Shown: piece after piece, positions 3,871 to 61,185 of the stretch
How positions within the stretch are numbered: the stretch's first letter is position 1
Layout: every line of letters starts with the position of its first letter
Origin: Eledone cirrhosa
Lineage: Eukaryota
NCBI GenBank assembly: GCA_964016885.1
Contig: OZ024766.1
Location: 15,438,001 to 15,502,000 of the forward strand
DNA: 64,000 bases
Direction: 5' to 3'
The notes under the pieces: model-generated
Told to the model about the DNA's origin: nothing
The model's input: only the letters and a program-made list of their open reading frames with translations
The model's database searches: none
Program-made: the position numbers and the translations under genes

Positions 3871-5442
3871 TAGTGGTTTGAAGTATGCTCCAATTTTCCT
3901 CCCTTTCACATCTTAACACTCCACCCCCTTACCAGCTAAGTACACCACCCTGACCTACCTCTCCAATCCCCACTCTACATACACACAACCCCACCCCCAC
4001 TTTCACATCTGATACACCTCTCTTGACCAACCCATGTATACAAGTAAGGAAAGCTTAACATGCTCTCCTCCAATGCTGCTGAAATGGCTAAACCCTCAGG
4101 CAACCCTGTAAGGTGGTCATGCAGGTGTCATGACAAAAGAGCACCAAGTCCTCTCTGTTAGGTAACATGACAAAAGAACACCTAACCCTCCCTGCAAGGT
4201 AGTCATGCTGATGACATGACAAATAAGCACCCAGTCCACCCTGTGAGGTAGACATGACAGAAGGCCCCTAGCCCACTCTGTAAAGTAGTCATGCTAGTGC
4301 TAGTGGCAAGACTGAAGGGACCCGAAGCACCCTTCAAAGTGATCAAATTGGTGACATGACTTGACACCATTTTTTAGTTTACTTCTAAAATATCTCATTT
4401 TTATTTTACTTCTAAACTATCTCATATATTTAAAAATTACTTATTTTAAAAAATTATTATTTATTTCTTAAAAAAATTACTTTTTAAAGATTATTTAAAA
4501 TTTTTTAATATTTTTAAATATTTTTTAAATATTTTTAAACATTTTAAATAGTTTAAGTACTTTTTAAGTATTTTATTTTGTTAAACGGGTTTTTTGAGTA
4601 TCTTCTGAGATTAAAAAACATTTTTTTTTTTATTTTTCCAGAAATTTTTTCCAGAACTTTTAATATTTTAATATTTTTAATATTTTTTAATTATTTAATA
4701 TTAGAGTTATAACCAATAACTAATTCTGGCTAAATATATCTTTCAACATTTATATCTTCGTCAAAATGGTCTCATACTAACTAATAAATAAACAAAGCTG
4801 GGTTTTTCAGTATCTTCCTAATTTAAAACATTAAAAACATATAAATAATCTTATTAACTCAGTTAATTTAATTACTTACACTAAATATAAACCAGTATCC
4901 CTCATAACTTATTTAAACAATTATCTATAACATGATATAGCCATTTATCCACTCATATATCTATTCTTCTATCTATTGATTCTCCTATTTTCTACTTTAT
5001 ATCTATTTATTTTCAATTTATTATTCAATGTCTTTATATATATTTATTTTTTCTATATATCTATTTTTCTATATACTTATAATAGTAAATATTATATTGT
5101 ATTATATTAGAATTCTAACAATAATTAGTAAATATACGTAACATTAATATAAACTTAATACTTATTTACGTTACATGAGTTCATCCTCTATAAATGTCTT
5201 TCTTCTCTCTATCTCTCTATCTATCTCATAACAGTAATTTTTTCTCTCTCTTTCTTCTCTTTCTTCCCTATCTTTCCCCAGCGTAATTTAAATAAACAGT
5301 TGTTTTTTCAATTTTTCATACATTCATTTGCATATTCACACATAACTTTGAATTACCCCTAATAAGTTTCTCCTATCCAGGGAATTTCCCACCGTTAAGG
5401 TTGATTTCCATGGGTATGTCGTTATTTATAAAACAAATTTTG

Positions 5443-5507
5443 TATTTTATCTGATGAAAGAGCACCAAGATTGACTTGGTCGCCCTTGAAATATATATAA
5501 TAAAATA
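5443..5507 (+). ncRNA. Type-I hammerhead ribozyme
   Basis: Perfect 8-bp stem I TATTTTAT/ATAAAATA; core CTGATGA at 5451-5457; stem II AAG..ACCAAG-ATTGA-CTTGGT..CTT; GAAA at 5488-5491; palindromic TATATA stem/loop III; AUA cleavage triplet ending at 5499. Confidence 0.75.
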
Positions 5508-6313
5508 AATATGCAAAAGTTCTATTTAAATTGTTGGGATACAACAAGCAAATATGTTTATAACTGATATAAAGCACTCAACAAGTATTTGGAATAAACA
5601 TACGATATTAACAATCCTTTTGTATTTTATGTACTCAATTATACTATGTACTATATTGATTTATACTTCTCTCTATATGTGAGTATATATGTATATGTGT
5701 ATATTGACATACATGTACATGTGTTCTATGCATTTTTATGAATATATGTCTGTCTGTATGTATGCATGCGTGACGCGTATCTACCAATTGGCCGAGGATG
5801 CACACACATGTATATATATGTATATGTAAGAATTGTGTGTGTACATGTACATGTATACCCATACAATTTGATTGCAGATAGACATAACTAACAGCCATAA
5901 ATGTATAACAGCTAATCTTATATATTTATATATATATATTAAAAAGAAATTGTTATAAAAAATATTTTATTTAATAACACAAAGGATGGATAACATTAAA
6001 TTAAAAATTCATTTATGCTTTGTATGTATATATTATATACGTGGTTAGATATGGTGTGTATTTTGTGAGTGTGTGTATATATATATTTATGTGTATTTTT
6101 GCGTGTGTGTACGTGTTATATGATATGTAGTTCTCTAGCAATATATAGATTTCTTAATGTTTAGATTCCAATTTTTAATATATTGATCTCAATTTTTAAA
6201 CTAAATATCTAATCATAGTTAAACAATGATTAATTTCTCATATTATGTATGTATATTCCATTCATGATTATTAATATTTCTAATTTTATTTATTCATTTC
6301 ATCTCAATTGTTA

Positions 6314-6851
6314 TCATCATCATCATCACCGTTTTACGTCCGTTCTTCCACGCTAGCATGGGTTAGACGGGTTGTCCTGTTGTGGGCAGTGTCTGGTCGG
6401 CTGACCATGCCTTGCTCATACAGGAACTGATCTGGCTTGATTTCTACAGCTGGATGCCCTTCCTAACACCAACCTCATTTACAGTGAGTGCTGGGTGCTT
6501 TTTCGTGGCGCCTACACGTCCACTTTACAGTGTGGGCTGGGTGCTTTTTTGCCGTGGCACCTCCACGACCACCTTGCGGTGGGGGGGGGGGGCATATTGT
6601 TTATATGCTTCAGCATGTACCCATGGGAGGTCGGGTACCCTGTATTACTGCGTGACGCCAGAAGTCACGGTCGTGTGTCATTGACTTTGAGAGGTGTAGT
6701 TGGGTAAGGTCGGCTTTTATCACCTCATCCCAAGTCATCTTGGGTCTCCCCACTCCGCGGTTTCCATCAACTTCTAGTGCTCTGCACCTTTTTATGCAGC
6801 TGTCATCCTTCATACGCATCACATGTCCATACCAGCGTAACCGCCTCTCTG
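6314..6851 (-). mobile_element. 5'-truncated RTE LINE 3' end with (GAT)n tail
   Basis: Near-identical to about 41790-42337 (MRMKDDSCIKRCRALEVDGNRGVGRPKMTWDEVIK). Confidence 0.85.
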
Positions 6852-7157
6852 TTAAGTTAACTTAATATGACATGACTTAATGTTTTCGTTCTTTCCCCCT
6901 CTCTCTATCTCTCTATTTTTCTCTCTGTCTGGTGTTTTGATATATCTCTCTCGTTTTTCTCTTTTTCTTTTTTCTTGTTTTCTTTCTTTCTTTCTCCCTT
7001 TTCTCTCTCTCCGTCTTTTTCCTTATCTGTAACACAACGACTTATTTAAAAAATACTAATATAAGTAAACAACTCCACTATCCCTGAGTCTTCCAAAAGT
7101 AACGGTTGCATTTTGTAAGGGTATGTCAATATTTATTTATAAAACTGTTATATATTG

Positions 7158-7222
7158 TATTTTGTCTGATGAAAGCATACCATAATTTAACATGGTATCC
7201 TTGAAATATGTATAATGAAATA
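7158..7222 (+). ncRNA. Type-I hammerhead ribozyme (diverged paralog of the 5443 motif)
   Basis: Stem I TATTTTGT/ATGAAATA with two G-U pairs; CTGATGA at 7166-7172; stem II AAG-C-ATACCAT/ATGGTAT-C-CTT; GAAA at 7203-7206; TATGTA-TA. Confidence 0.7.
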
Positions 7223-7290
7223 GATATGGTTTTATAAATATAGTTTCCATTTGTTAATATCGTATAATAAAATAAATATAGTTTTATAAA

Positions 7291-7672
7291 TCATCATCAC
7301 CGTTTTACGTCCGTTCTTCCATGCTAGCATGGGTTAGATGGGTTGTCCTGTTGTGGGCAGTGTCTGGTCGGCTGACCATGCCTTGCTCATACAGGAACTG
7401 ATTTTGGCTTTTCTACAGCCGGATGCCCTTCCTAACACCAACCTCATTTACAGTGAGTGTTACGTGCTTTTTTCCGTGGCGCCCACACGTCCACTTTACA
7501 GTGTGGGCTGGGTGCTTTTTTTGTGTGGCACCTCCACAACCACTTTGCAGTGGGAGGGTGTGGGGTCATATTGTCTATATGCTTCAGCTTGAACCCATGG
7601 GAGGTCGGGTACTCTGTATTACTGCGTGACGCCAGAGGTCACGGTCGTGTGTCATCGCCTTTGAGAGGTGTG
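7291..7672 (-). mobile_element. RTE LINE 3' end fragment
   Basis: Same 3' UTR as 6314-6700 and 41930-42337. Confidence 0.8.
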
Positions 7673-7932
7673 TGTTTATATATATATATATATACAAATA
7701 AATTATCGAGAATCGGAATCTCGGCCCATGAAATAATGAAACACAATCAAAGTGCTCAATAGTTTGGATAAACCAGAGCTATAACTAACGTTTAAATACC
7801 AACACACTGAGATAATGCTTAAAATCATTCGCACAGCCGAAAAAAACGACCAAGAAAATTCGGGTCAGACAAATAATAAATATATATATATATATTTTTT
7901 CTTTTAACATATATGTGTATATAAAATATATA

Positions 7933-8007: not shown

Positions 8008-8454
8008 TAATATACATATCATTAAACGTATCTCCTACATGTGTATAAATAAATATACATGTATTTTATTAACAATTTTCTGTAGAATCTGTTAAACATG
8101 GAAGAAAATGTGGAGACTAAATAAATTTAACGTGTTGGTCACATTAACTTAATAATATAACTATATATTAATGAAATATGTCGAAATAAAAGTTGTAATT
8201 GTGACAAAAATATTGATTCGGTAGTTTATTATGACCAAGACTACTCATTATCCCACTACATCTTTTGTATACTATATATATACTGTATATATACTGTTTA
8301 TATATATATACACACACACATATAATTGCGTATTCACACATTATCTTAGTAATGAAATAATAATTTTAGTAAATTGTTCACCAGGCAATTCCTTCCTCAA
8401 TCATTACATAGATGTGTGTATGTAATAATTATTTTGTATTGTGTGTCTATTTAG

Positions 8455-11020
8455 AAATATGTATGTGTAGATGTGTGTGTGTGTAACACAGTAGATGTGT
8501 GTGTATGTAACACAATAGATGTGTGTGTATGTAACCCAGCAGATGTGTGTGTATGTAACTCAGCAGATGTGTGTGTGTAACACAGTAGATGTGTGTGTAT
8601 GTAACTCAGCAGATGTGTGTGTATGTAACACAGTAGATGTGTGTGTGTGTGTAACACAGTATATGTATGTGTATGTAACACACTAGATGTGTGTGTATAT
8701 ATAACACAGTAGATGTGTATGTAACACAGTAGATGTGTATATATAACACAGTAGATGTGTATGTAACACAGATGTGTATATATAACACAGTAGATGTGTG
8801 TGTATGTAACACAGATGTGTGTGTATGTAACACAGTAGATGTGTGTATGTAACACAGTAGATGTGTATATATAACATAGTAGATGTGTGTGTATGTAACA
8901 CAGATGTGTGTATGTAACTCAGCAGATGTGTGTGTGTAACACAGTAGATGTGTGTGTGTGTAACACAGTAGATGTGTGTGTATGTAACTCAGCAGATGTG
9001 TGTGTATGTAACACAGTAGATGTGTGTGTAACACAGTATGTGTATGTAACACACTAGATGTGTGTGTATATATAACACAGTAGATGTGTATGTAACACAG
9101 TAGATGTGTATATATAACACAGTAGATGTGTGTATATATAACACAGTAGATGTGTATGTAACACAGTGTATATATAACACAGTAGATGTGTGTATATGTA
9201 ACACAGTAGATGTGTATATATAACACAGTAGATGTGTATGTAACACAGTAGATGTGTATATATAACACAGTAGATGTGTGTGTATGTAACACAGATGTGT
9301 GTGTATGTAACAAGTAGATGTGTGTATGTAACACAGTAGATGTGTATGTAACACAGTAGATGTGTATATATACCATAGTAGATGTGTGTGTATGTAACAC
9401 AGATGTGTGTATGTAACTCAGCAGATGTGTGTGTGTAACACAGTAGATGTGTGTGTATGTAACTCAGCAGATGTGTGTGTATGTAACTCAGCAGATGTGT
9501 GTGTATGTAACACAGTAGATGTGTGTGTGTGTGTAACACAGTATGTGTATGTAACAGACTAGATGTGTGTGTATATATAACACAGTAGATGTGTATGTAA
9601 CACAGTAGATGTGTATATATAACACAGTAGATGTGTGTATATGTAACACAGTAGATGTGTATATATAACACAGTAGATGTGTATGTAACACAGTAGATGT
9701 GTATATATAACACAGTAGATGTGTGTGTATGTAACACAGATGTGTGTGTATGTAACAAGTAGATGTGTGTATATAACACCGTAGATGTGTATGTGTAACA
9801 CAGTAGATGTGTATATATAACACAGTAGATGTGTGTGTATGTAACACAGATGTGTGTGTATGTAACAAGTAGATGTGTGTGTGTAACACAGTAGATGTGT
9901 GTGTATGTAACTCAGCAGATGTGTGTGTATGTAACAAGTAGATGTGTGTATGTAACACAGTAGATGTGTATATATAACATAGTAGATGTGTGTGTATGTA
10001 ACACAGATGTGTGTATGTAACTCAGCAGATGTGTGTGTGTAACACAGTAGATGTGTGTGTATGTAACTCAGCAGATGTGTGTGTATGTAACACAGTAGAT
10101 GTGTGTGTGTGTGTAACACAGTATGTGATTGTAACACACTAGATGTGTGTATATAACACAGTAGATGTGTGTGTATATATAACACAGTAGATGTGTGTGT
10201 GTGTGTGTAACACAGTATGTGTATGTAACACACTAGATGTGTGTGTATATATAACACAGTAGATGTGTATGTAACACAGTAGATGTGTATATATAACACA
10301 GTAGATGTGTGTATATGTAACACAGTAGATGTGTGTATGTAACACAGTAGATGTGTATGTAACACAGTAGATGTGTATATATAACATAGTAGATGTGTGT
10401 GTATGTAACACAGATGTGTGTATGTAACTCAGCAGATGTGTGTATGTAACACAGTAGATGTGTGTGTATGTAACTCAGCAGATGTGTGTGTATGTAACAC
10501 AGTAGATGTGTGTGTGTGTGTAACACAGTATGTGTATGTAACACACTAGATGTGTGTGTATATATAACACAGTAGATGTGTATGTAACACAGTAGATGTG
10601 TATATATAACACAGTAGATGTGTGTATATGTAACACAGTAGATGTGTATATATAACACAGTAGATGTGTATGTAACACAGTAGATGTGTATATATAACAC
10701 AGTAGATGTGTGTGTATGTAACAGATGTGTGTGTATGTAACACAGTACATGTGTGTATGTAACACAGTAGATGTGTATGTAACACAGTAGATGTGTATAT
10801 ATAACACAGTAGATGTGTGTATATATAACACAGTAGATGTGTGTGGATGTAACACAGTAGATGTGTGTATGTAACAGTATATGTATGTGTATGTAACACA
10901 CTAGATGTGTGTGTATGTGTAACACAGTAGATCTGTGTGTATGTAACACAGTAGATCTGTGTGTATGTAATACAGTACATGCATGTATGTAACACAGTAG
11001 ATGTGTGTGTATGTAACTAA
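8455..11020. repeat. Minisatellite with core TAACACAGTAGATGTGT and variable (GT)/(AT) spacers
   Basis: More than 100 units of about 18-30 bp with recurring variants (TAACTCAGCAGA, TAACACACTAGA). Confidence 0.95.
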
Positions 11021-11877
11021 AGTGTAACGTACGTTACGAATGGACAACTAAAAGATTTTAACTTGTTTTTTAACAATTCATGGTGGAAAAAAATTTAAAT
11101 TGTCTCAATTCAGACCATAAAGGGCCGCAACACACGGTGTTTGACCCACTTACCGGCTACATAGCCTCGGAGTCTATTTTACTGAGACCGGCTACATATC
11201 TTCTTCCTAAAATCTTCCAACATAATTTTATACAAGAACCACATGTTAAGTTACTAATAAAATAATTAATAATTAAAAACTTCAGTAAATCCTTCAAATG
11301 ATATCTCAGTAATGAAATAATTAATAATTGTTATAAATACCTCAAAATTCCTCATTAATTAAACCCAAGACAGGTAAAAACTCCAGAGTCTTTCAATCGG
11401 ACATGAAACAAATTAATTTCTAATGGAAGAAGTAAAGATTTTAAAGTCAGCCAAGGGAGATCACTCTCAGCGACTTATCGTAATTCTTGTTCCTGAATTA
11501 ATCCGGATGAAAATATTCCGGTGTATTTTGTGTGGAGGAAACCGGATTTAGGCGGTGATAGCACGCAATACATGAACGTATGGTTCGTGAGTTCGAATCC
11601 CATACCGGGTGGTCTGTACGTCGGGGCCTTGAACAAGACACTTTATTTCTCATTGTTTTATTTCACCCAGCTGGCAAAAATAATAAGTTGTAATAATTAT
11701 AGTGGAAATGTTGTTACATAGAATTGTCACACTGAATCTCCCTGAGAAGAATGTCAACGGTATACGTGTCAATGAAATACTCAGACACATTATAATATAA
11801 GATGGGTTCTACATGTATTTCAAAGGGAAGCCATGCCATACGTCTTGCTGAATCTCCCTGAGAACTACGTATATACT

Positions 11878-12600: not shown

Positions 12601-12632
12601 AATTGTGGCTATCATTATTATAGACTTCAAGT

Positions 12633-12797
12633 CGGTAGAGGGTCAGACGCCATGCTTTCCAGCATAGTTACGTACCTTTACGATCTGAGTTCAAATCCCG
12701 CCGAGGTTGACTTTGTCTTTCATCCTTAGGGGGTCGATAAAATAAAGTACCAGTAATGCACTGGGTAATTGCTGGTCTTGTGCCTAAAGTAGAAACA
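12633..12797 (+). mobile_element. tRNA-derived SINE (Meta-SINE-like core), 5'-truncated, with long TSD
   Basis: B-box GAGTTCAAATCCC; core CTTTCATCCTTAGGGGGTCGATAAAATAAAGTACCAG; TSD ATTATTATAGACTTCAAGT at 12614-12632 and 12798-12816. Confidence 0.8.
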
Positions 12798-13287
12798 ATT
12801 ATTATAGACTTCAAGTAAATCTTTGTCAACTTACCTCCTTCACATATAATCAATGTGTTGTGTTGTTAGTTGTTACTAAACAACCAAAGAAATAATCTCT
12901 TTGTTATCAAATTAGAAGTTTCAATGTTATCAGCTTTATTTCCTGACATTAACGTTGGTGTATCTTCTTCATCTTTAGTCATGAATTGATATCTTGTCAG
13001 AATGAAGTAGTGAGGATGACTTTATATCTTTAGCTACAGATTTGATAGGAAATATATATAGATTAGGTTGATATGTGGTCTAAAATATATATATTGTCTA
13101 TAAATGACTGATAGCAGATGTTCTGGTGAAATAGTAGTTTTACTACTACAGATTGTAATGGAACTCTTAGTAGACACAATTGTAAAGTAAGAATAGATAT
13201 GACAGTGTAAGACTGATGTCGGGGAAATAAACTTGTGTATATATATATAATTGTTACACAAGATATAATTAGATTAATTAAAGTTAT

Positions 13288-13473
13288 AATTGTTTCTACT
13301 TTAGGCACAAGGCCAGCAATTAACCAGTGCATTACTGGTACTTTATTTTATCGACCCCGTAAGGATGAAAGGCAAAGTCAACCTCGGCGGGATTTGAACT
13401 CAGATCGTAAAGGGACGTAACTATGCCGGAAAGCATGGCGTCCGACCCTCTACCGATACTGCCAATTCACCGC
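13288..13473 (-). mobile_element. Full-length SINE of the same family
   Basis: A-box TGGCAGTATCGG and B-box GAGTTCAAATCCC on the minus strand. Other copies at about 32605, 38533, 43875, 45299, 46050, 47541, 51411 and 55741. Confidence 0.8.
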
Positions 13474-14932: not shown

Positions 14933-17900
14933 CTAGCTGACGTACCCAGCTTCGCCCGGGTAAACAGATGATAAGAGAAGACAGGTAAAAGAGAAAATGT
15001 CTGTATTGGATGTTTGTCTGGTTACAGTGTGAGGCGAGTCCGTGTTGTCTGTGTGATACAAAAAAACTGTAAAAGAAATCTTCCAGATATACCAGATTCT
15101 TCGTTGTCCGGTTTGTGCATAGTATATGAACAATTCTAGGTGCTCCCACCTAGAATAGTGACCTCTAGGAGATGGTTCCTCTTCGGCCTGACTGGAAAAC
15201 GTGTATCATTGCATAGACGTGGTTGTTCCACGTTTCTCAAAAGGATGATGGAAGTTCCAATCTGTTATATTATATGTAGATATAGATATAGATAATTAAT
15301 AAAAAAGATGTCCGTCAATGTAAAGAAGGTCCCTATTTACTTGAAATGGTTTATACAAATGCCAAATTAATATGGATATGGATAACCTGCTTATCTATAA
15401 GTGGTCAGCTATAATAATAAACCAACAAATTATATGACACAAACATTTATTCAGTAATTTCCAGGCTCTTAGCCACTGAGTAATAGACAGTCAATATTGC
15501 CCAGAGTTCAACTCGGGGAGGTGGCCTGGTTTGAACTCAAAATGGCGGATCCTTCTACTTCGAAAATAGAATGGTTTTTCAATATTACTCTAGCCCTGGC
15601 CGGCCATAGGCACCAAACTTTTTGCCAGATTCAGCATATGATGAGGTTTTATTACCACTGCAATCAGAAGCGATAAATTTGAAGGCAATTTCTACCAATA
15701 CTTGTTGGTTTTTATTGCTCATTATCGACAATAAATGACATTGAACATAAATGATAACTCTGCCAAAGCTCACAATACAGATGAAAGGAAACCAATGTCC
15801 GAATCATATACGTCGCTTATTGATAGCATTAAAGATATGCATACATCAGCTCAAAGCTTCATTATAGACAATATTTAGGTTTGTTCCTCTGTTAGTGGTA
15901 TCAATTGCAAATTTTATACCATCAGGATCGCACACTCGAGATGCAGCAACATACAGTTGCCCATGGCTGGATCATTCAAGCAGACACCGACTCGCTTGAA
16001 AGTCTGTCCCTGTGCCTTGTTGACAGTCATGGAGAAGGCCAAATTGACGGGAAACTGTCTCCTTTGCCACATAAATGGCAGCAGATCTTCACTTGGTCTC
16101 AGCATGATCCTCGGAATGAGAACCGATTCCTCTCTGCCTGGGAGTTTAGCTTCTAAAACTCTTCTGTTAATCAATCTCTCAACAATCAATCTGGTACCAT
16201 TGCAAAGACCCATTTTATGATTGATATTTCTAAGCAATATAATCGGCAAACCCTTTTTCAACCTCAAAATATGTGGGGGAAATCCGGGTATTTGAAGTGA
16301 ATTCAGATACTCAGTCGGAACATCCATACTGTTCTGCTGATTAGGCTCCATTGCATCCGCACTGACGGTCAACCATTCCTCTCCAGGAAACATTCCGGCT
16401 ACTTGTGAATTTATTTCAGCGACCGTTGCATTCGTATGAGTTAGAATAACACGTTCCGATATTCAGGAGATATTCTGCCAAAAAGCATTCAAATTAGGGA
16501 ACACCCAGTCAATCAAGCCTTGGCGGTCCAGTGGCATGACCAAATGGTCTGGGATTTATACAGTCTGATTATCACCAGCGTGTGGCAATTCATCGTTTCC
16601 CAACTGTATCAACCATCGGCCGTATGTCTCAGCCTCTTCGTTTTGCCCGAACATAGGAAGTCGCATATTATCGTGTAATCGCAAAACTCTGAAATGGCGC
16701 CACAACGGGGACTTTTTCAGACATGCATTGACAATTTGTGCTCTTTGAGCATTCCTAACAATTGGTAGCACCTGTCTGAAATCGCCACCAACAACGATAG
16801 TCTTACCACTGAATGGCAGGTCACTACCGCAGATATCTCTCAAAGTTCTGTCCAATGCCTCCAGCAAATATCTGTGTGCCATTGGAGCCTTGTCCCAAAT
16901 AATCAGAGACGTATTGCGTATAAGGCCCGCGAGTTCACTTTGTCCTGTAATATTACAGAAACTCAACTCATCTGGAGCCAATGGAGCCTTGAAGCATGAG
17001 TGGAAGGTCCTTCCACCACTCAGCAAAGTGGCAGCGATGCCCCTGGTGGGCACAGGGAGAGCAATCTTCCTCTGAGCTCTGACTGCCGATAACATAGTGT
17101 TGAAACAGAATGTCTTTCCGGTGCCTCCTGTAACATCTATGAAAGCACAAAGTTGCTCATTAGTGGAAATCGAGTGGAGAGCGCCATCGACCAATTCTCC
17201 GTGAGATTGGGTCAACATTGGCATACGTTCATCCACAATACGTTGCTGTTCCAGTGGATCAAACTGGAATAGTTCCCTCCGATCGAGTGGCAACCGTCTA
17301 AGCTGCAATCTCATGTTCAATGCTAAGACACGTTGCCGCATTTCTTCATCAGGAATTGGTAAATTGAAATCTGTTAAACATTTCAAATGAACTTCGAGCA
17401 GTTGCTCAATATTGAGCAAAACAATAGCTTTCAGCAAATTTTCATCATAGACCTGAAGATGATGCCTAAAATCATCAGCCATAATTCCCCAATGGCGTTC
17501 AAATAACTCTCTTGGATCGGCAGGATTGCAGAATCCTAGAATAGTGACAAACAACTGCCTTATTCGAGCTGGCATCTGTGTTGTTCCTGCAGCTTCCATG
17601 GCGTTATTCCATTCAGCGTCATCCTGAAGGAGTCCCAGATGCTGACACACAGCCTGGTATCTTTTATATTCCACGCCATTGATTGTTTTCAAATCAGCGA
17701 AGCTCTGTTTACCTCTCGAAAAATCACTATGCAACAGAATTCGGAGATAAAACACATCACCAGATGCTGGATGGACATTACAAACCCGTCCAATAGTCAT
17801 GAATCTCAACTTTTGTTTTCTATCATTCCATTTCTTTCCCTTCTTATCCCACGTATAGTGCGAAGGGAAATCGCAGTAGAGTTGCTTTTGATCCGGGTTC

Positions 17901-20767
17901 AAAGCATGTTCCCTATTATGCTTGAACCACTCAGTCAATTCCGTCTCAGGAGGTGGTGCGTTAGCAATTCTTTCGACACCTCTTCTAGTGTCCTTAAAAC
18001 AGACCATTTGCCTATTCTCTAAGTGAACCGTCAGTTTCTGAACGCTGGGTTTGCATTCATTGAGATCAAAATCGAACAATCTCCAGCAAGCTTCGCTAGA
18101 TCCAATCGAGCGAACATCCTGGAACCTGCCAACTTCATCTCCTTGGTTCACTTCCTCATTCCTGACATTCATCATTGCCCCATCATGACCTTTGTAAACA
18201 TATTTGAATAGATATTTGCAAGCTTTCACTGAGCTACAAATTTCCACATTAATATGACAACGATATTTCATAATCAAATATGGATTGTATGGCACAACCC
18301 ATTGATTTGTAACCTGTCGACCGTTTACATTTTCGACCAAACCGCCATCGGCAGGCGACCGTCTTCTGTATGAGGGATGAGCATCCCCATCATTCCAGGA
18401 AGTGTTCGTGACAAAAGATTTCGGAAAGTGCTTACTGCATTGGCCATTTTTCATGCAAGGCGCTTTCCAATTTGCCACTCCGCATTGGTTGTGCACCATT
18501 GACTTTGCCACCAAGTTGCATAGTGCCTCATTCTCCGGCAGTTCAGCACACACAATGCTGTCGACATCCTCAGCACATCTCAATTTGCAATGTCTATGTA
18601 AAATGATCAGCAAATGTGCATGTGGCAATCCTCTTTTTTGGAATTCAATTACGTATGTAAAAGCAACTATACCTCCAAAGATTCCCTCTTTTTCCACATC
18701 ATCCATTATCTTTTTCAGATATCCTTTGAATACTCTTGCCACAATATCAGGACGGTCCTTTGGCTGTTGTCCTGGCAAAAGTGCATCCTTAATATCAGTC
18801 CATTCAGGATTGCATGTAACCGTTATAAACAAATCTGGCTTTCCAAACTTTCTGACAATAGCCATTGCATCCTGATAGCGAATGTTCATATATCTCGGGC
18901 TGCCGATGAACGACGATGGCAAAATGATGCGTCGACCAATTTGCTTGTAATTGGCATCATCGGCTGTTATCGCATCCTGTATATTATTATACAATTCAGC
19001 TCTGATATGTTGCTGATGTGTAGCTATATAATTTAGCCTTTGATTTTCGATCTTTGCGTATGCCATACAACAGTATTCCTGGAACAATCTGCTGGCTTGA
19101 AATAGCGCATTTCTCTGTTGATTCCTCTCGTTCAAATGGAACGCGTAAAAGTCGCAAATCGAATTATTGTGTCTATTGCCACCTCCCTGTTGATGCTGAT
19201 TCTCATGATCATCTAAATGAACAGACATGTTCCATCCATTTTCACCTTTTGGGAATAAAAGAACATGATGCAATGGATGGTATGTCCTATTTGACTCATT
19301 GATAGTTTTGAGACCACCATCTCTGCGATTGAGGGTGATATCTCTCGATCCAGGCTTATCGTCCATCAACACAGCAACTTCACGAAATCCTTCAGGGGCA
19401 TTATATCGCCGTTCGTGTTGATTCCTTGGCACTGCGTCAGCCTTAATCACCAATGTTTGTTGCTGAACATTTTGCAGTTCAGCCACCAACATGAAATCCA
19501 TAACATAAGGATTACACTGTCTAAGCCATGATTGCAAATCACGGATCAAATCACTTAACCTTTGCCGTTCAAGTTCAGTTATATTTCCCGGCAACTTCAT
19601 CCAACCGATCCTGATATCCTCCTCCGATTCACTATAATTTGGATCGTTAATGTAAATTTGAGCGAATCAAGGCCTCTCTCCTGGGGTAACTTCTAAATTA
19701 CCGATACAATGATACAAACGGCATTGAATGACAACATTCGGTTGCCATGCTCCACTCTCAAACATCTCACTAACTCTCTGCGATGCTAAAGCTAATAAAT
19801 TGTTAATTTGCCGCGAATATTTGCGCAGTAATCTACCTCGGTCTCATTGATCACCCCACATACTTAGTATTTTAAACTCCGGTGACTCCCCATCATCCGG
19901 CATTCGCAAAGGTTCTAGTTGAACTGCTCCTTTGTGACAGCACATTGTGGTCCACGTCTTTTCGTGCCACCAAAGCAATGCTCCACAATGTGGAGACCCT
20001 GCTCGTCCACCAATCTGACAGTGACACGGTTGCCATGATCCATTTTTAATATCATTCGTTCGCCTCTTTACTGGAATGAGGAGCACTTTGCGACACATTC
20101 CCTGAACTTCTGTATTGCGCTGGCGCTGTTCAGCCAGCTCCTCTTCATCCATCGGAGCACGCCATTGCTGCTGAATTCTGGCCACCTGCTGATGATGCTC
20201 AGCCAGTTCGTTTTTCAACCATCGCAGCACTCCGTCGCCGCTGTAGTTCACTGTTTGATAAAGTCGAATTGCTTTTCTTATCAGTATTCATTTGGAGCAA
20301 TTGTAAAAAAAAATGACACAATAATAAATATAAAAGATGTCCGTCAATGTAAAGAAAGGTCCCTATTTACTCCCTTCACAACTCTGTGTATGACAGACAG
20401 GCACACAGACAGATAAACTGCGCGGCGATTGTGGAACGTCACACAAATACACGCATGGAAACGCGCACACGCACGCAAACTTACACACGCACACACTCAC
20501 ACATGTTGATAGTTTTTACTTTCTGTGGAACACTGCACGCACGCACACACACATAAACATATGCGCACATACATACACACGCATACATGTTAATAGTTAT
20601 TGAACACAGCGTTCACACTCTCCCCTCTCACTCCCTCATCGGCATTATGCATATTAATTTCAGTTTGGCGTCGTTGGGGTGGGCGGAGTCGTTTGAAACC
20701 TATGAACCAATGATAATCGAGAATTGTGACACATGGAATACTGACGTTCTTCAAATTAATATATAGA
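14933..20767 (-). mobile_element. Full-length Helitron (5.8 kb)
   Basis: Minus strand starts A|TCTATATATT at 20767 and ends with hairpin TACCCGG/CTGGGTA plus CTAG|T at 14933; encodes RepHel. Confidence 0.92.
15914..20251 (-). pseudogene. Helitron RepHel (HUH Rep + Pif1-like helicase), split by stops and frameshifts
   Basis: ORF 16556-19600 has EFQKRGLPHAH (HUH), YLFKYVYKGHD (Y2), GGTGKTF, WDKAPM (DE changed to DK) and GDFRQVLP. ORF 15914-16393 has QFPVNLAFSMTVNKAQGQT. ORF 19844-20251 has an N-terminal Cys/His motif. Confidence 0.92.
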
Positions 20768-29388: not shown

Positions 29389-30040
29389 AAGTTCCAAAAG
29401 GGGGGGGGGGGGGAACAGGCCAAGCGGAGAAAGTTGTGATGTCGTTAAGTCAGGAATGCCGTTATGGGGAGAAAATTATTTAAAATTTAAACGAGGGAAA
29501 GAATGCGCGTGCGCGTGATAGGCTGTGGCAAAAGCTACTGACCAAATGGGTTAAATCAAGAGGGTGCGCTAGCGTGTGAAAGCCGTAAGATATGTGTGTG
29601 TAAATATATATGTGTGTGTAACTGTGTGTGTATAAGTGTAAGTGTGTATATGTGTGAGTGTGTGTGTGTGTGAAAGATAGTGGGCTGTAGAAGTTGGAAA
29701 TCAAAGGGTGTGAAAGGTGGTAGGTTGTAAAATATGTGTGCGTGTATAAATATAGATGTGTGTGTGTAAGCGTATGGGTATACATGTGTGTGTAACTGTG
29801 TGTGTATATGTGTGAGTGCGTTTGTGTGTGAAAGATAGTGGGCTGTAGAAGCTGGAAATCAAAGGGTGTGAAAGGTGGTAGGTTGTAAAAACATGTGTGC
29901 GTGTATAAATATAGATGTGTGTGTGTGTGCGTATGGGTATGCATATACGTGCGTGTGTGTGAAGATAGCAGGCCGTAGGCTGTGAATGGTCACTATGGTT
30001 AAGTTAGCCATGTCAGCTCATTTCTCTCAGCCCGGTTGAA

Positions 30041-31690
30041 TTCTGTGTCAGCTCGAGAGAGACCTACAACAACTTAGCTCTCCAACATCTTAATGACCAC
30101 AGCCTCTACTCGAAAGTCACAGGGACCTCCTCGACTCTAATCGAGGAAGGCATTAACACCATATGGACTAACATCTGTGTCCAACGAAAACTGCCAAAGA
30201 AGGTAAAAAACAACTTAATGACTCTAAACAGCAAATTACCCACCTTCTACCACCTGGTCAAAACACATAAACAAGGACCCGATTTGAAAATCAGGCCCAT
30301 TGTCTCTAGCGTGGAGGGCCCACTCTACAAAATATCGTGGCTGCTCTCCACACTACTGAAACCTATTCTACACACACTACCAGCCCACGTCTGCAGCTCA
30401 AAGGAAGTCTTGGAGCGACTACACCATCTGGCGCCCAACACCAGAAAGGACAACGGTTATGCCTTCAGTCTTGATGTGGTCGCCCTTTATACCTCCGTAC
30501 CAGCACCCCCAGCTGTCGACCTGTTGACCGAACGAGTCCGAGCATCTAACTTACACTGCTTCGGACTCACACACACGGACATCCACCAACTCCTCTCTTT
30601 CGTTGTGGATAATGCACTCTTCAATTTCCTCGGCCACACGTACAAACAAATCTCTGGGCTACCTATGGGCTCTAGTCTGTCCGGCATACTTGCGATCTCG
30701 TACATGGACCACCTGGAACGCAAGGCACTCAATACCTGCCAACCCAACGCCGTCGCCTTCTACTCCAGATACGTTGAGGATATCCTGATACTTACTTCTT
30801 CCCGGGAGATGGCGAATGAAATTCACCAAATCTTCAACGATACTGACCATCACATCGATTTCACCATCGAACACCCAGGAGAAGACGGGTCACTCGCCCT
30901 CCTCGACTTCCGTATCAACATCTCGGAAGAAGGAGACATAAACACCACCTTCTACCGCAAGGCAGCGTGCAAGGACTTATTTGTGCATTATAACTCAGCC
31001 CTCCCCAACAACGCTAAGAGAGGCTATGTCCTAAATGAACTGACATGGATCACTAATAGATGCAGCGACCCGATGGGTGGTCTCACCCATACCACGCAAT
31101 TCCGTAATCTACTCAGATCTAATGGTTATCCCAAGCGACTGATTAACGGAATTAGAGACCCCAGACCCAATAGACAGACACCCACTAGAAAACTTAATAA
31201 TAGCAGGTGCTTCTTTAAAATCCCCCACCTGAGTGAATATACCACGAACGCCATCCGCAGGGCCATACGGACGGAGGGACTTGACATACATTTGGCCCAC
31301 ACAGGACCTTCGCTGCGAAGATGCCTCTCCAACAAACCCGACGAGTCAGATGGGACGTGTTCCCTCAGCAACTGCCCGATACGGGGGGCAGATTGCCTAT
31401 GCACCTATGTCGTATATAAGATTCAATGCGATAAATGTAACAAGTTTTACATAGGTAGCACCATCCGACCCCTACATGTTTGTATCAAGGAACATATCAA
31501 CACCAACGCATCTTCCTTCCGTAAACACATCCTTAAATGCGGAAACCCACAGGGTAGACCCTTGGTCACAGTCCTAGCGACTGAACGCAGCATCGGATCC
31601 TTAAGGATAAAGGAAGCACTTGTTATTAAGAACCTCAGACCCCCACTTAACAACCGGGCTGAGAGAAATGAGCTGACATGGCTAACTTAA
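30041..31690 (+). CDS. Penelope-like RT + GIY-YIG endonuclease, 5'-truncated, catalytic YVDD reads YVED
   Basis: PTFYHLVKTHK, RPIVS, SLDVVALYTSVP, GLPMGSSLS, RYVED, NGYP, Cys linker CSLSNCPI..C, VVYKIQCDKCNKFYIGST...EH. Frame is open from 30041; first Met at 30218. Confidence 0.9.
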   Translation, partial: FCVSSRETYNNLALQHLNDHSLYSKVTGTSSTLIEEGINTIWTNICVQRKLPKKVKNNLMTLNSKLPTFYHLVKTHKQGPDLKIRPIVSSVEGPLYKISWLLSTLLKPILHTLPAHVCSSKEVLERLHHLAPNTRKDNGYAFSLDVVALYTSVPAPPAVDLLTERVRASNLHCFGLTHTDIHQLLSFVVDNALFNFLGHTYKQISGLPMGSSLSGILAISYMDHLERKALNTCQPNAVAFYSRYVEDILILTSSREMANEIHQIFNDTDHHIDFTIEHPGEDGSLALLDFRINISEEGDINTTFYRKAACKDLFVHYNSALPNNAKRGYVLNELTWITNRCSDPMGGLTHTTQFRNLLRSNGYPKRLINGIRDPRPNRQTPTRKLNNSRCFFKIPHLSEYTTNAIRRAIRTEGLDIHLAHTGPSLRRCLSNKPDESDGTCSLSNCPIRGADCLCTYVVYKIQCDKCNKFYIGSTIRPLHVCIKEHINTNASSFRKHILKCGNPQGRPLVTVLATERSIGSLRIKEALVIKNLRPPLNNRAERNELTWLT

Positions 31691-36715: not shown

Positions 36716-36860
36716 ACAAACAAACAAACCGGACATTATAATAAATGTTCAGTAAACCGATACGTGCATATATATATGTGTGCATGTATGTATATATATA
36801 CATACTACTGTAGGTCTGTATACATATATGTATGTACGTATACATACATACATACTTACA

Positions 36861-36892
<32 letters not shown>

Positions 36893-36893
36893 C

Positions 36894-36930
<37 letters not shown>

Positions 36931-37056
36931 TATATAGAACAATAAAATATGGCACCAGATGTTCAACCCAAGACCTTATGATTGAGAATAGCACACCTGT
37001 AACTTCTAAGCTATATATCTTCACACAGACTTTCTGATAAAGACAGAAGTACCCAC

Positions 37057-37194
37057 CTGACTGACAGTTGTCTCCCCTGAAACCAGCTGCACATCCAACA
37101 CTAGAACACACCCCAGATTTAATGTCGCAATGATCGTTGTCAGCACAGTAGCACAAATACTGACAGTTCAAGCCAAAATAACCCTTTTTACATT
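37057..37194 (-). CDS. Multi-EGF-repeat gene exon (last exon detected)
   Basis: 138 bp, AG/GT, phase 1-1: ECKKGYFGLNCQYLCYCADNDHCDIKSGVCSSVGCAAGFRGDNCQS. Confidence 0.88.
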
Positions 37195-37859
37195 CTGAAA
37201 AAAAAAAAAAAAAGAAAATAGAATTATATACACAACATATATATAAAATTATACACAATAACACATATATACAATTATACACAGCTATAACATACATATA
37301 CACAATTATACATAACTATAATGCCAATGTGCGTGAATGACCAAGCATAGACGAGTTGAGAAAGAAACTGGGTATAAGAGGGATAAGTTGTGGTGTGCAG
37401 GAGAGAAGGCTGAGCTGAGATGGTATGGACATGTGATGCGCATGGAGGATGACCGCTGGGTAAAGAAGTGCCAACAAATCCCAGTAGAAGGAAGACGCAG
37501 TAGAGGTAGACCATGAAAAACATGGGCGGAGGTGGTGAGAGAAGACCTCAAATTGCTGAAACTCACGGAGGAGATGACAAGGGACTGTGACGAATGAAGA
37601 GATGTCATGCTTAATAAGACCCGTCCCACCCTTGCAAGCAGGGAAAAGCGGACGTAAAATGATGATGATGATGATAATAATAAAATTATTGTGTACAGTG
37701 CTCAGGTGCACTACAACTCATCAATGGTGAATGTATAGTACATTAGTGAACAGACAGTGAACAGTGTATGAGTCATGAGATACACACAGACACATGCATG
37801 CGTGTGTATGGAGGGGGAATATCAGGTGTAGTGTTGGCGCAAAAAAAAAATAAAAGGAA

Positions 37860-55380: not shown

Positions 55381-55434
55381 TGATGATGATAATAACAATG
55401 ATGATATTTATGATGATGATAGTACACCACTTAC

Positions 55435-55572
55435 CTGTCTGACAGTTGCCACCTTCATATCCAGGAGCACATCCTCCATTAGAGCAGCTACCAGTCTGTG
55501 GCTTACATTTACTCTTGTCAGCACAATGACACATGTTTCGACAGTTTGGTCCAAATTTTCCTCTCTTACATC
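55435..55572 (-). CDS. EGF-repeat exon
   Basis: 138 bp, AG/GTAAGT: GCKRGKFGPNCRNMCHCADKSKCKPQTGSCSNGGCAPGYEGGNCQT. Confidence 0.9.
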
Positions 55573-56489
55573 CTACAAATCAATCAATAACAAATATATA
55601 TTTTGGTGTGTATTTGTGTGGCCTTGTGGTAAGGGTGTTGGACTTACAATCATAATGTCGTGAGTTCTATTCCTCAACTAGGTTGTGTGTTGTGTTCTTG
55701 AGCAAAAGTATTTCCATTCATGTTGCTCCAGTATAATAATAATTGTTTCTACTTTTGACACAAGGCCAGCAATTACCCAGTACATTACTGGTACTTTATT
55801 TTATCGACCCCGTAAGGATGAAAGGCAAAGTTAACCTTGGTGGGATTTGAACTCGGATCATAAAGGGACGTAACTCTATGCTTCAAAGCATGGCGTCCGA
55901 CTCTCTACCAATACTGACAATCCACCGCTCCAGTATAATAATAATAATAGTGAAATTATTGTGTACAGTGCTCAGGTGCACTATAACTCATCAAAGGTGC
56001 ATGTAAAGCACATAGAATAATGAACAAATGTCAGGAAAATGAACAGTGTATGAGTCATGATAAACATATGTACGTGTGTATGGAGGAGGGATATCAGGTG
56101 TAGTGTTGGCGAATTTCAGGAAGCTTGGAGATCAGTGCCAGTAATAGCTGGTGATTTAACCTTGGGATGGACTGGTGCCCTGTCCAGGGGAAGTTTTGTA
56201 TTTTAAGTCACTTCATGCCATAGATAGCACTGGCCTGATGACCCTCAGCACTCGAGACACACTTTAGACATTTTTTGTTTTTGTATATTCAACAGCCCAG
56301 TCCTTCTAACTGTCGGTAGGTATCACACTGAGCAGAGTCCACTGTATTCCCCACACCTGGACAGGATGCTAGTCCATTGCATGGTATTTCACTGCTATAT
56401 TATTCTATCTACTCCAAAAGTATGACAGAAAAGTTGATTTTGGTGGGATTTGAATACCGTTTTAAAAAAGGACTCAAAATCACAACCCA

Positions 56490-59900: not shown

Positions 59901-60690
59901 TAACACACCTGTCTGACAGGTGCTACCTTATAACCAGGACCACACCATCTACTGTAACACACCTGTCTGACAGGTGCTACCTTATAACCAGGACCACACC
60001 ATCTACTGTAACACACCTGTCTGACAGGTGCTACTTTATAACCAGGACCACACCATCTACTGTAACACACCTGTCTGACAGCTGCTACCTTATAACCAGG
60101 ACCACACCATCTACTGTAACACACCTGTCTGACAGGTGCTACCTTATAACCAGGACTTCACCATCTACTGTAACACACCTGTCTGACAGGTGCTACTTTA
60201 TAACCAGGACCACACCATCTACTGTAACACACCTGTCTGACAGCTGCTACCTTATAACCAGGACCACACCATCTACTGTAACACACCTGTCTGACAGGTG
60301 CTACCTTATAACCAGGACCACACCATCTACTGTAACACACCTGTCTGACAGGTGCTACTTTATAACCAGGACCACACCATCTACTGTAACACACCTGTCT
60401 GACAGCTGCTACCTTATAACCAGGACCACACCATCTACTGTAACACACCTGTCTGACAGGTGCTACCTTATAACCAGGACCACACCATCTACTGTAACAC
60501 ACCTGTCTGATAGATGATACCTTATAACCAGGATCACACCATCTACTGTAACACACCTGTCTGACAGGTGCTACCTTATAACCAGGACTTCACCATCTAC
60601 TGTAACACACCTGTCTGACAGGTGCTACCTTATAACCAGGCCACACCATGTACTGTAACACACCTGTCTGATAGATGATACCTTATAACC
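56934..60690 (-). repeat. 54-bp minisatellite (~70 units) derived from the 3' half of an EGF exon
   Basis: Unit CAGACAGGTGTGTTACAGTAGATGGTGTGGTCCTGGTTATAAGGTAGCACCTGT, contiguous with the half-exon at 60673-60755. Confidence 0.93.
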
Positions 60691-60782
60691 AGGAACACAC
60701 CTTCCACTGGAACACACACCTGTCTCTGTCTTACACCTACTATCATCTTGACTAAATATATTAAGTAGCAAACAAAGCTTAC

Positions 60783-60920
60783 CTGGCTGACAGTTGCTAC
60801 CTTCATAACCAGCAGTACATCCTCCTCTAGAACACACACCTGTCTGTTTGTTACATTTACTGTTGTCAACACAGTGACATGTGTTGCCACAGTTGGCTCC
60901 AAATTTTCCATTTCTACAGA
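60783..60920 (-). CDS. EGF-repeat exon
   Basis: 138 bp, AG/GTAAG: VCRNGKFGANCGNTCHCVDNSKCNKQTGVCSRGGCTAGYEGSNCQP. Confidence 0.9.
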
Positions 60921-61185
60921 CTGTGGAAATAAAAATATGAGAACAATGACAATAACAACAACATATAACACTATACAAGATAATGCTTTCTGATTTAGGC
61001 ACAAGGCCAGCAATTTTAGGGGAGGAGAAAATCAATTAAATCGACCCCAGTGTGTGACTGGTACTTCATTTTATCAACCCTGTTGGGATGAAAGGGATAG
61101 CTACCACAATTCTATCATCTATATTATAGCGTTGTCATCTATACTATATCTATATCATCTGAACTATATTTGTATCATCTTAATT

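Follow-up and report, generated by a model that had tools for sequence, protein, structure and literature searches.

The window analyzed here, a 64-kb stretch of Eledone cirrhosa DNA (C27:15438001-15502000), carries a pair of hammerhead ribozyme motifs within a run of transposon-derived segments. About 2.8 kb upstream of the pair lies a C2H2 zinc-finger frame (1924-2650, + strand), which has two intact fingers followed by stops and frameshifts, ends after about 88 codons and belongs to a duplicated block. Downstream, a minisatellite of 20-26-bp units occupies 8430-11030, and a 171-nt inverted repeat (12632-12802 and 13286-13456; 96% complementary, 483 nt apart) is either MITE-like or a hairpin-shaped retroelement remnant. 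Long Rep/helicase-like frames of 1,036 aa and 182 aa are found on the - strand at 15914-19666, and we take them from their motifs to be of Helitron type. EGF-repeat exons lie on the - strand near 36749-37315, 55400-55579 and 60625-61035. A second, unrelated Penelope-like ORF of 560 aa (30008-31690, + strand) matches Pfam RVT_1 (E 2.8e-9) and, weakly, GIY-YIG; the CxxC between its VVY and YIG is that of a canonical, not Hydra-type, endonuclease.

When both strands of the entire window were scanned for the hammerhead structure, exactly two type-I motifs emerged, both on the + strand, at 5443-5507 (hammerhead 1) and 7158-7222 (hammerhead 2), with cores beginning at 5451 and 7166. Each has the CUGANGA, GAAA and NUH elements of the type-I core together with helices I-III. 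Both comprise an 8-bp helix I (including two G-U pairs in hammerhead 2), CUGAUGA, GAAA, a helix II domain of 30 nt with A-U as its closing pair, a UA cleavage site with A at the cut, and an 8-nt, self-complementary helix III (AUAUAUAU or AUAUGUAU). On this basis both are real type-I hammerhead motifs, and self-cleavage is predicted, with cuts after 5499 and 7214. The initial annotation, prepared from the letters of the window, had described the same two complete + strand motifs and the same cut positions, and the scan agrees with it on both counts. Its stem II sequences, ACCAAG/CTTGGT and ATACCAT/ATGGTAT, do pair, the motifs do have their flanks and a pyrimidine tract upstream in common (mean column identity 72%), and the spacer is free of ORFs as described (none of at least 120 aa in 5200-7290). 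By contrast, the diverged units of ~400 bp that it proposed were not recovered: the motifs share 51 of 69 nt and, apart from a low-complexity tract, their likeness extends over no more than about 140-200 bp of pseudo-LTR.

At gathering score, Rfam recognized nothing in the window, and the active form was absent from free folding of the motifs. Closing helix III inside one molecule costs about 2.9 kcal/mol, whereas helix III pairing between two molecules yields -2.2 to -3.2 kcal/mol. The heteroduplex of motifs 1 and 2 reaches -3.2 kcal/mol, equal to the 1+1 homodimer.

We searched the 3.0-Gb genome with a 19-nt pattern of helix I and core, which gave 10,974 exact matches, compared with none for the reversed control. 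The fetched loci contained 84 helix II variants, from which 30 of equal length were picked for covariation analysis. The scan behind this set admitted only motifs with helix I and the closing pair of helix II, and the upper part of helix II, whose register differs between the two types of motif described below, was omitted. In this set 99.2% of cells were paired, 4 of 16 pairs had changed on both sides, and none of 500 shuffles reached the score. Together, the match counts and the covariation in helices I and II among variants argue that the motif is not a chance occurrence. Helix III changes in sequence among loci, with ATATATAT in 138, ATATGTAT in 98 and ATGCGCAT in 13 of 257 matches (redundant loci included), and thus remains self-complementary while varying. 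Copy number and covariation were the genome-wide checks proposed at the outset, and conservation of cores and stems among genomic copies was found. We also observed a further hammerhead family, in which helix II is long and helix III forms a perfect ATGCGCAT palindrome, and another with a G+C-richer helix I (L010:1194-1268, L059:923-997, L112:8059-8123 and L071:1719-1784).

The two motifs belong to different subfamilies of a Penelope-like element (PLE), designated A and B. The segment from about 4368 to 5512 (+ strand) is a 5'-truncated copy of subfamily A, consisting of 3' UTR and 3' pseudo-LTR, with 87-88% identity to L008, L010 and L016 (the same loci as L061-L063). It starts some 100 bp past the point where the ORF of longer copies stops; among these, L062 and L063 extend upstream into frames that contain YRDD and carry a nuclease-like (GIY-YIG-type) module at the C-terminus. 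Hammerhead 1 has the A-type helix II (145 exact matches genome-wide), and hammerhead 2 the B-type (548 exact matches). Subfamily B spans 5513-7262 overall, as an inverted tail followed by direct 3' UTR with pseudo-LTR. The inverted tail (5513-5614, - strand; 92-95% inverted identity to the B copies L059/L065, L069, L070, L072 and L100/L108) corresponds to the ~100 nt that normally follow the pseudo-LTR and here makes up, in inverted orientation, the 5' part of the insertion, a layout common in dispersed copies (e.g. L059, L009, L013, L014, L021). The first part of the B 3' UTR (5613-6313, + strand; 89-92% identity to L070, L073, L079 and L100/L108) starts about 470 bp downstream of the L073 ORF stop, and the second part with the 3' pseudo-LTR (6850-7262, + strand) is 82-96% identical to dispersed B copies. 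In the B parents L073 (678-aa frame) and L108, RT and GIY-YIG-type frames lie upstream of the B UTR.

As judged from these matches, each motif is the 3' pseudo-LTR of a 5'-truncated PLE with Hydra-clade motifs. The earlier link between the hammerheads and PLE pseudo-LTRs is borne out, since both match the 3' ends of coding copies. What had been read as units of a non-autonomous repeat or retrozyme are instead two separately inserted subfamilies of a protein-coding PLE; the motif positions given for them hold, but the element limits do not, as A starts near 4368, outside 5200-7290.

To characterize the parents, we ran a protein search of the genome, in which 150 of 22,986 candidates were scored as matches, and picked 16 loci for long open frames, sister subfamilies included. 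All 16 carry a 743-816-aa frame with DKT (the DKG-to-DKT change of Hydra), together with RWR (14/16), YRDD (13/16) and CxCx5C (15/16); RWR occupies the N-terminal RWK column, which holds RWK or RWR among homologs. The single ORF encodes RT followed by a C-terminal VVY...YVG module of GIY-YIG type with weak profile support, and the endonuclease lacks a CCHH finger, having at most one Cys between VVY and YVG and a CDLC..EE...N...C(R/K)H signature. The protein had 529 homologs at E <= 0.001, the top match at 40% identity. Pfam returned no family and no RT match for four ORF pieces, Pfam GIY-YIG appeared in 1 of 18 aligned homologs at a sub-threshold E of 0.012, and the only PDB match was a retron RT (E 0.0084). 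With profile and structural support this weak, the RT and endonuclease calls rest on the motifs together with the weak retron RT match. Nine copies have the complete pseudo-LTR-ORF-pseudo-LTR arrangement, in which 3,676-4,234 nt separate the two co-oriented hammerheads and the pseudo-LTRs are 91-100% identical (at least 97% in eight of the nine; L109 was examined in full). The true co-oriented pairs of the family are therefore near-identical and flank an ORF, unlike the ORF-free pair at 5443-7222 with its 51/69-nt identity.

By their protein motifs, the parents likely belong to the Hydra clade, whose published description (Craig et al. 2021, PMC8557442) gives DKT, CxCx5C, no CCHH, CxxC and CxH on either side of E and N, a hammerhead, and insertion at (TA)n. 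Our family shares with these C-terminal EN+ PLEs the single ORF with RT before a GIY-YIG-type module, the DKT and the CxCx5C linker, the missing CCHH cysteine pair, and the CxxC and CxH about a conserved E and N. It also shares the canonical 3' hammerhead, here within a pseudo-LTR, the bias towards (TA)n insertion, and the partial tandems, inverted 5' pieces and tail. It differs in carrying RWR where Hydra has RWK, in a tail of about 100 nt as opposed to 30-40, and in its more than 10,000 motif copies and intact ORFs (PMC8557442). Hydra elements are generally <3 kb, whereas the units here measure 3,676-4,234 nt; Hydra-1_Obim is 2,507 bp, compared with 3.7-4.2 kb and a 1.2-1.5-kb AT-rich 3' UTR in our family, whose hammerhead departs in every helix from the Hydra-1_oBim motif given in supplement S2 of that paper (PMC8557442). 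Membership among Naiad PLEs, which have an N-terminal EN, DKA and no canonical hammerhead, was rejected given the C-terminal EN, DKT and hammerhead found here. We did not find this PLE family described in the literature, although it may stand in Repbase or Dfam under another name; the words 'hammerhead', 'ribozyme' and 'Hydra' are absent from the main text of an O. vulgaris repeat paper (PMC13282606), whose repeat library may hold the family. The initial suggestion of an undescribed family thus survives insofar as the family appears undescribed in the literature; what was taken for a new repeat unit looks like another family of a known PLE clade, distinct from Hydra-1_Obim.

The junctions between A and B explain how the two motifs came to lie together. 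A 17-mer occurs in the window only at 5496 and 7263. Its left copy (5496-5512, + strand) overlaps hammerhead 1, taking in the end of helix III together with the helix I 3' strand; its right copy (7263-7279) directly follows the normal 3' end of B and continues into 12 further bases of A tail (7263-7291, + strand), where it is cut off by a second RTE-like fragment. The repetition of the 17-mer and the A tail beyond it indicate that B inserted at ATATATATA, within the (TA)4 helix III of A's hammerhead, with a 17-bp target-site duplication whose edges are blurred by microhomology. We consider ATATATATA the usual kind of target, because 33 of 49 parsed 3' ends of the family adjoin (TA)n, the others running on into tail (15) or taking another form (1), with 29 more unparsed. 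The second RTE-like fragment (7290-7671, - strand) interrupts A's tail, the last ~30 nt of which do not resume after it (7290-7700) and were probably deleted when it inserted.

Searches with the left and right A/B junctions gave 26 genomic matches each (union 27), all in clusters on C16, C19, C20 and C27, compared with 8,379 ordinary 3' ends genome-wide. Eight duplicates were fetched at 9.9 kb, and in every one of them the sequence beyond A and B is 89-99% identical to the window for kilobases. The restriction of the junctions to segmental duplicates, at 26 against 8,379 ends, points to a single insertion event that was later copied, and the A-B pair exists only where this one nested insertion was copied by segmental duplication. 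Habitual insertion into hammerhead helix III was considered and rejected in this exact register, as the 26 matches are duplicates of one event. The duplication itself is young and large, with at least 27 copies (C20:3.52-5.30 Mb, C27:13.08-15.45 Mb, C16 and C19) that are 89-99% identical where compared; on C20, 15 junction copies lie 83-212 kb apart. Haplotypes in the assembly could account for some of the copies, yet LINEs occupy different sites from one copy to the next, an indication that many are genuine. No broken core was found in 26 copies of hammerhead 2 or in 21 readable copies of hammerhead 1. Hammerhead 2 has 21 mismatches in 1,794 nt among the duplicates, compared with 0 in 2,496 and 0 in 988 in its flanks, and its changes keep pairing; the copies are too young for a selection test.

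The spacer is further interrupted by a young, 5'-truncated LINE fragment of 536 bp (6314-6849, - strand), which we take from its motifs to be RTE-like; its tail is (GAT)n, and its insertion duplicated 5 bp of target, TGTTA. The fragment is present in 3 of 26 duplicated copies and so arrived later than B; the site is empty in the remaining 23, of which 14 were measured and have 1,133-1,248 nt from cut to cut. A late RTE insertion had been proposed in the initial annotation, and these copies support it. The empty-site joint also appears in three of four public contig runs. The insert encodes the C-terminus of an RT ORF that is longer in L180, and its interpretation as a fixed-length SINE was rejected in view of longer copies in L180 and L183 (L180:5761-8307; L183:2209-3445). 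RTE-like copies 99.3-99.8% identical to the window insert occur at three different sites in duplicates of the block, and the sequences suggest a very young LINE family, recently or currently active.

With high confidence, we conclude that both motifs are 3' pseudo-LTRs of two separately inserted, 5'-truncated and related PLE copies, likely Hydra, and that B inserted once into A's helix III. The parental elements, boundaries, 17-bp duplication, inverted tail, polymorphic LINE and restriction to duplicates are observed, and from them we infer the following order of events. An A copy would first have been reverse-transcribed into the locus, truncated inside its 3' UTR. To a B copy, the ATATATATA palindrome in the A hammerhead would then have been a (TA)n target like any other, and insertion there would have left an inverted tail, direct 3' UTR and pseudo-LTR, with a target duplication that happened to keep A's motif complete. 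The region would subsequently have been multiplied within the large segmental duplication, and the RTE-like LINE would have entered a few of the copies.

Two co-oriented complete motifs with common flanks and an ORF-free spacer would fit a non-LTR retrozyme dimer, or a non-autonomous PLE, with diverged units that move together by way of circular RNA. Metazoan non-LTR retrozymes (Cervera and de la Pena 2020, PMC7229834; Li, Clavereau and Pollet 2026, preprint 10.64898/2026.07.22.740005) likewise combine type-I hammerheads with AT-rich non-coding sequence and kinship to PLE pseudo-LTRs. Their published monomers are however 150-450 bp long and arranged in tandem (PMC7229834), whereas here we found no short head-to-tail units with a hammerhead each; the spacing is 1.2-1.7 kb, the motifs belong to two different coding subfamilies, and both units are truncated UTRs of coding elements. 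The spacer opens with an inverted tail and closes in a target-site duplication. Close pairs (<1 kb) of the family, counted by eye in the first 100 matches listed of each type, are all on opposite strands (8 A-type, 15 B-type), and same-strand pairs within 1 kb number zero in 25 dispersed loci. The composite shows no sign of movement as a unit and occurs only in segmental duplicates; its junction counts, in that it has never dispersed, largely refute a retrozyme, which we regard as extremely improbable. Among 30 unselected motif loci (28 independent places), two other places have co-oriented, dissimilar hammerheads less than 400 bp apart.

The accidental nesting could, alternatively, have produced a double ribozyme that now works as a heterodimer in transcripts reading through the locus, for instance from the same-strand zinc-finger gene upstream, and releases a 1.15-1.25-kb RNA (1.7 kb here) able to circularize. 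The equal strength of the helix III heteroduplex and the 1+1 homodimer fits this idea, as do the helix I strands that a circle would join, which by their sequence still pair, and the presence of the pair with intact cores in at least 27 duplicated copies behind a zinc-finger frame. Yet the helix III duplex is weak, metazoan PLE hammerheads are reported to cut poorly in vitro even as dimers (PMC4209133), both motifs have A-U, not G-C, at the base of helix II, and the zinc-finger frame ends after about 88 codons; moreover, hammerhead 2 is more variable than its flanks among the duplicates (21/1,794 versus 0/2,496 and 0/988), although pairing is kept. We therefore consider such a double ribozyme very unlikely. 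Release of a 1.7- or 1.2-kb RNA by co-transcription is geometrically possible from the positions of the predicted cuts, and an active, circle-producing cassette at the locus seems, from the sequence, a slim prospect. Equally doubtful is a retrozyme at its birth, in which insertion of a PLE into the hammerhead palindrome duplicates helix I, two compatible ribozymes come to lie 1.2 kb apart in at least 27 places behind a zinc-finger gene, and read-through transcripts are cut into circular RNA; if true, it would offer a concrete route from PLE ends to retrozymes. We compared four public contig runs over 5300-7400, in which contigs cannot show RNA ends; joints from about 5467-5513 to 7199-7230 were rejected as circles or deletions and are best read as A-like copies continuing into their own tail. 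Nested insertion of two PLE copies thus remains our preferred reading, in which both ORF-less copies at the locus are, although their cores are intact, most likely inert passengers.

The motifs resemble the minimal and PLE-associated hammerheads of other metazoans, which are type I, reside in pseudo-LTRs, have a long helix II and a palindromic helix III, are mostly single or in opposite-strand pairs 100-700 bp apart, and form several sequence families per genome (PMC4209133). They differ in having A-U in place of the usual G10.1-C11.1, an 8-bp helix I, and a helix II mismatch after three base pairs (C-C in motif 2, A-C in motif 1; PMC4209133). It has been proposed that the hammerheads of two pseudo-LTRs act as a dimer via the palindromic helix III to process precursor RNA, and metazoan motifs showed only low activity in vitro (Cervera and de la Pena 2014, PMC4209133). 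By analogy, the two identical motifs of the full-length parents likely dimerize by way of helix III and would weakly cut unit-length RNA, and the conservation of the helix III palindrome in the family fits this proposal.

The locus itself, a pile-up of transposon ends, is of little importance, and it illustrates that two co-oriented hammerheads are insufficient to call a retrozyme in a PLE-rich genome. The nested site is a clear example of how a hammerhead's own TA palindrome can act as an insertion target. As a by-product, the analysis has brought to light a PLE family that is abundant and was active recently; it has intact ORFs and the motifs of the Hydra clade, differs from Hydra-1_Obim, and offers covarying motifs suited to tests of dimer cutting by PLE hammerheads.
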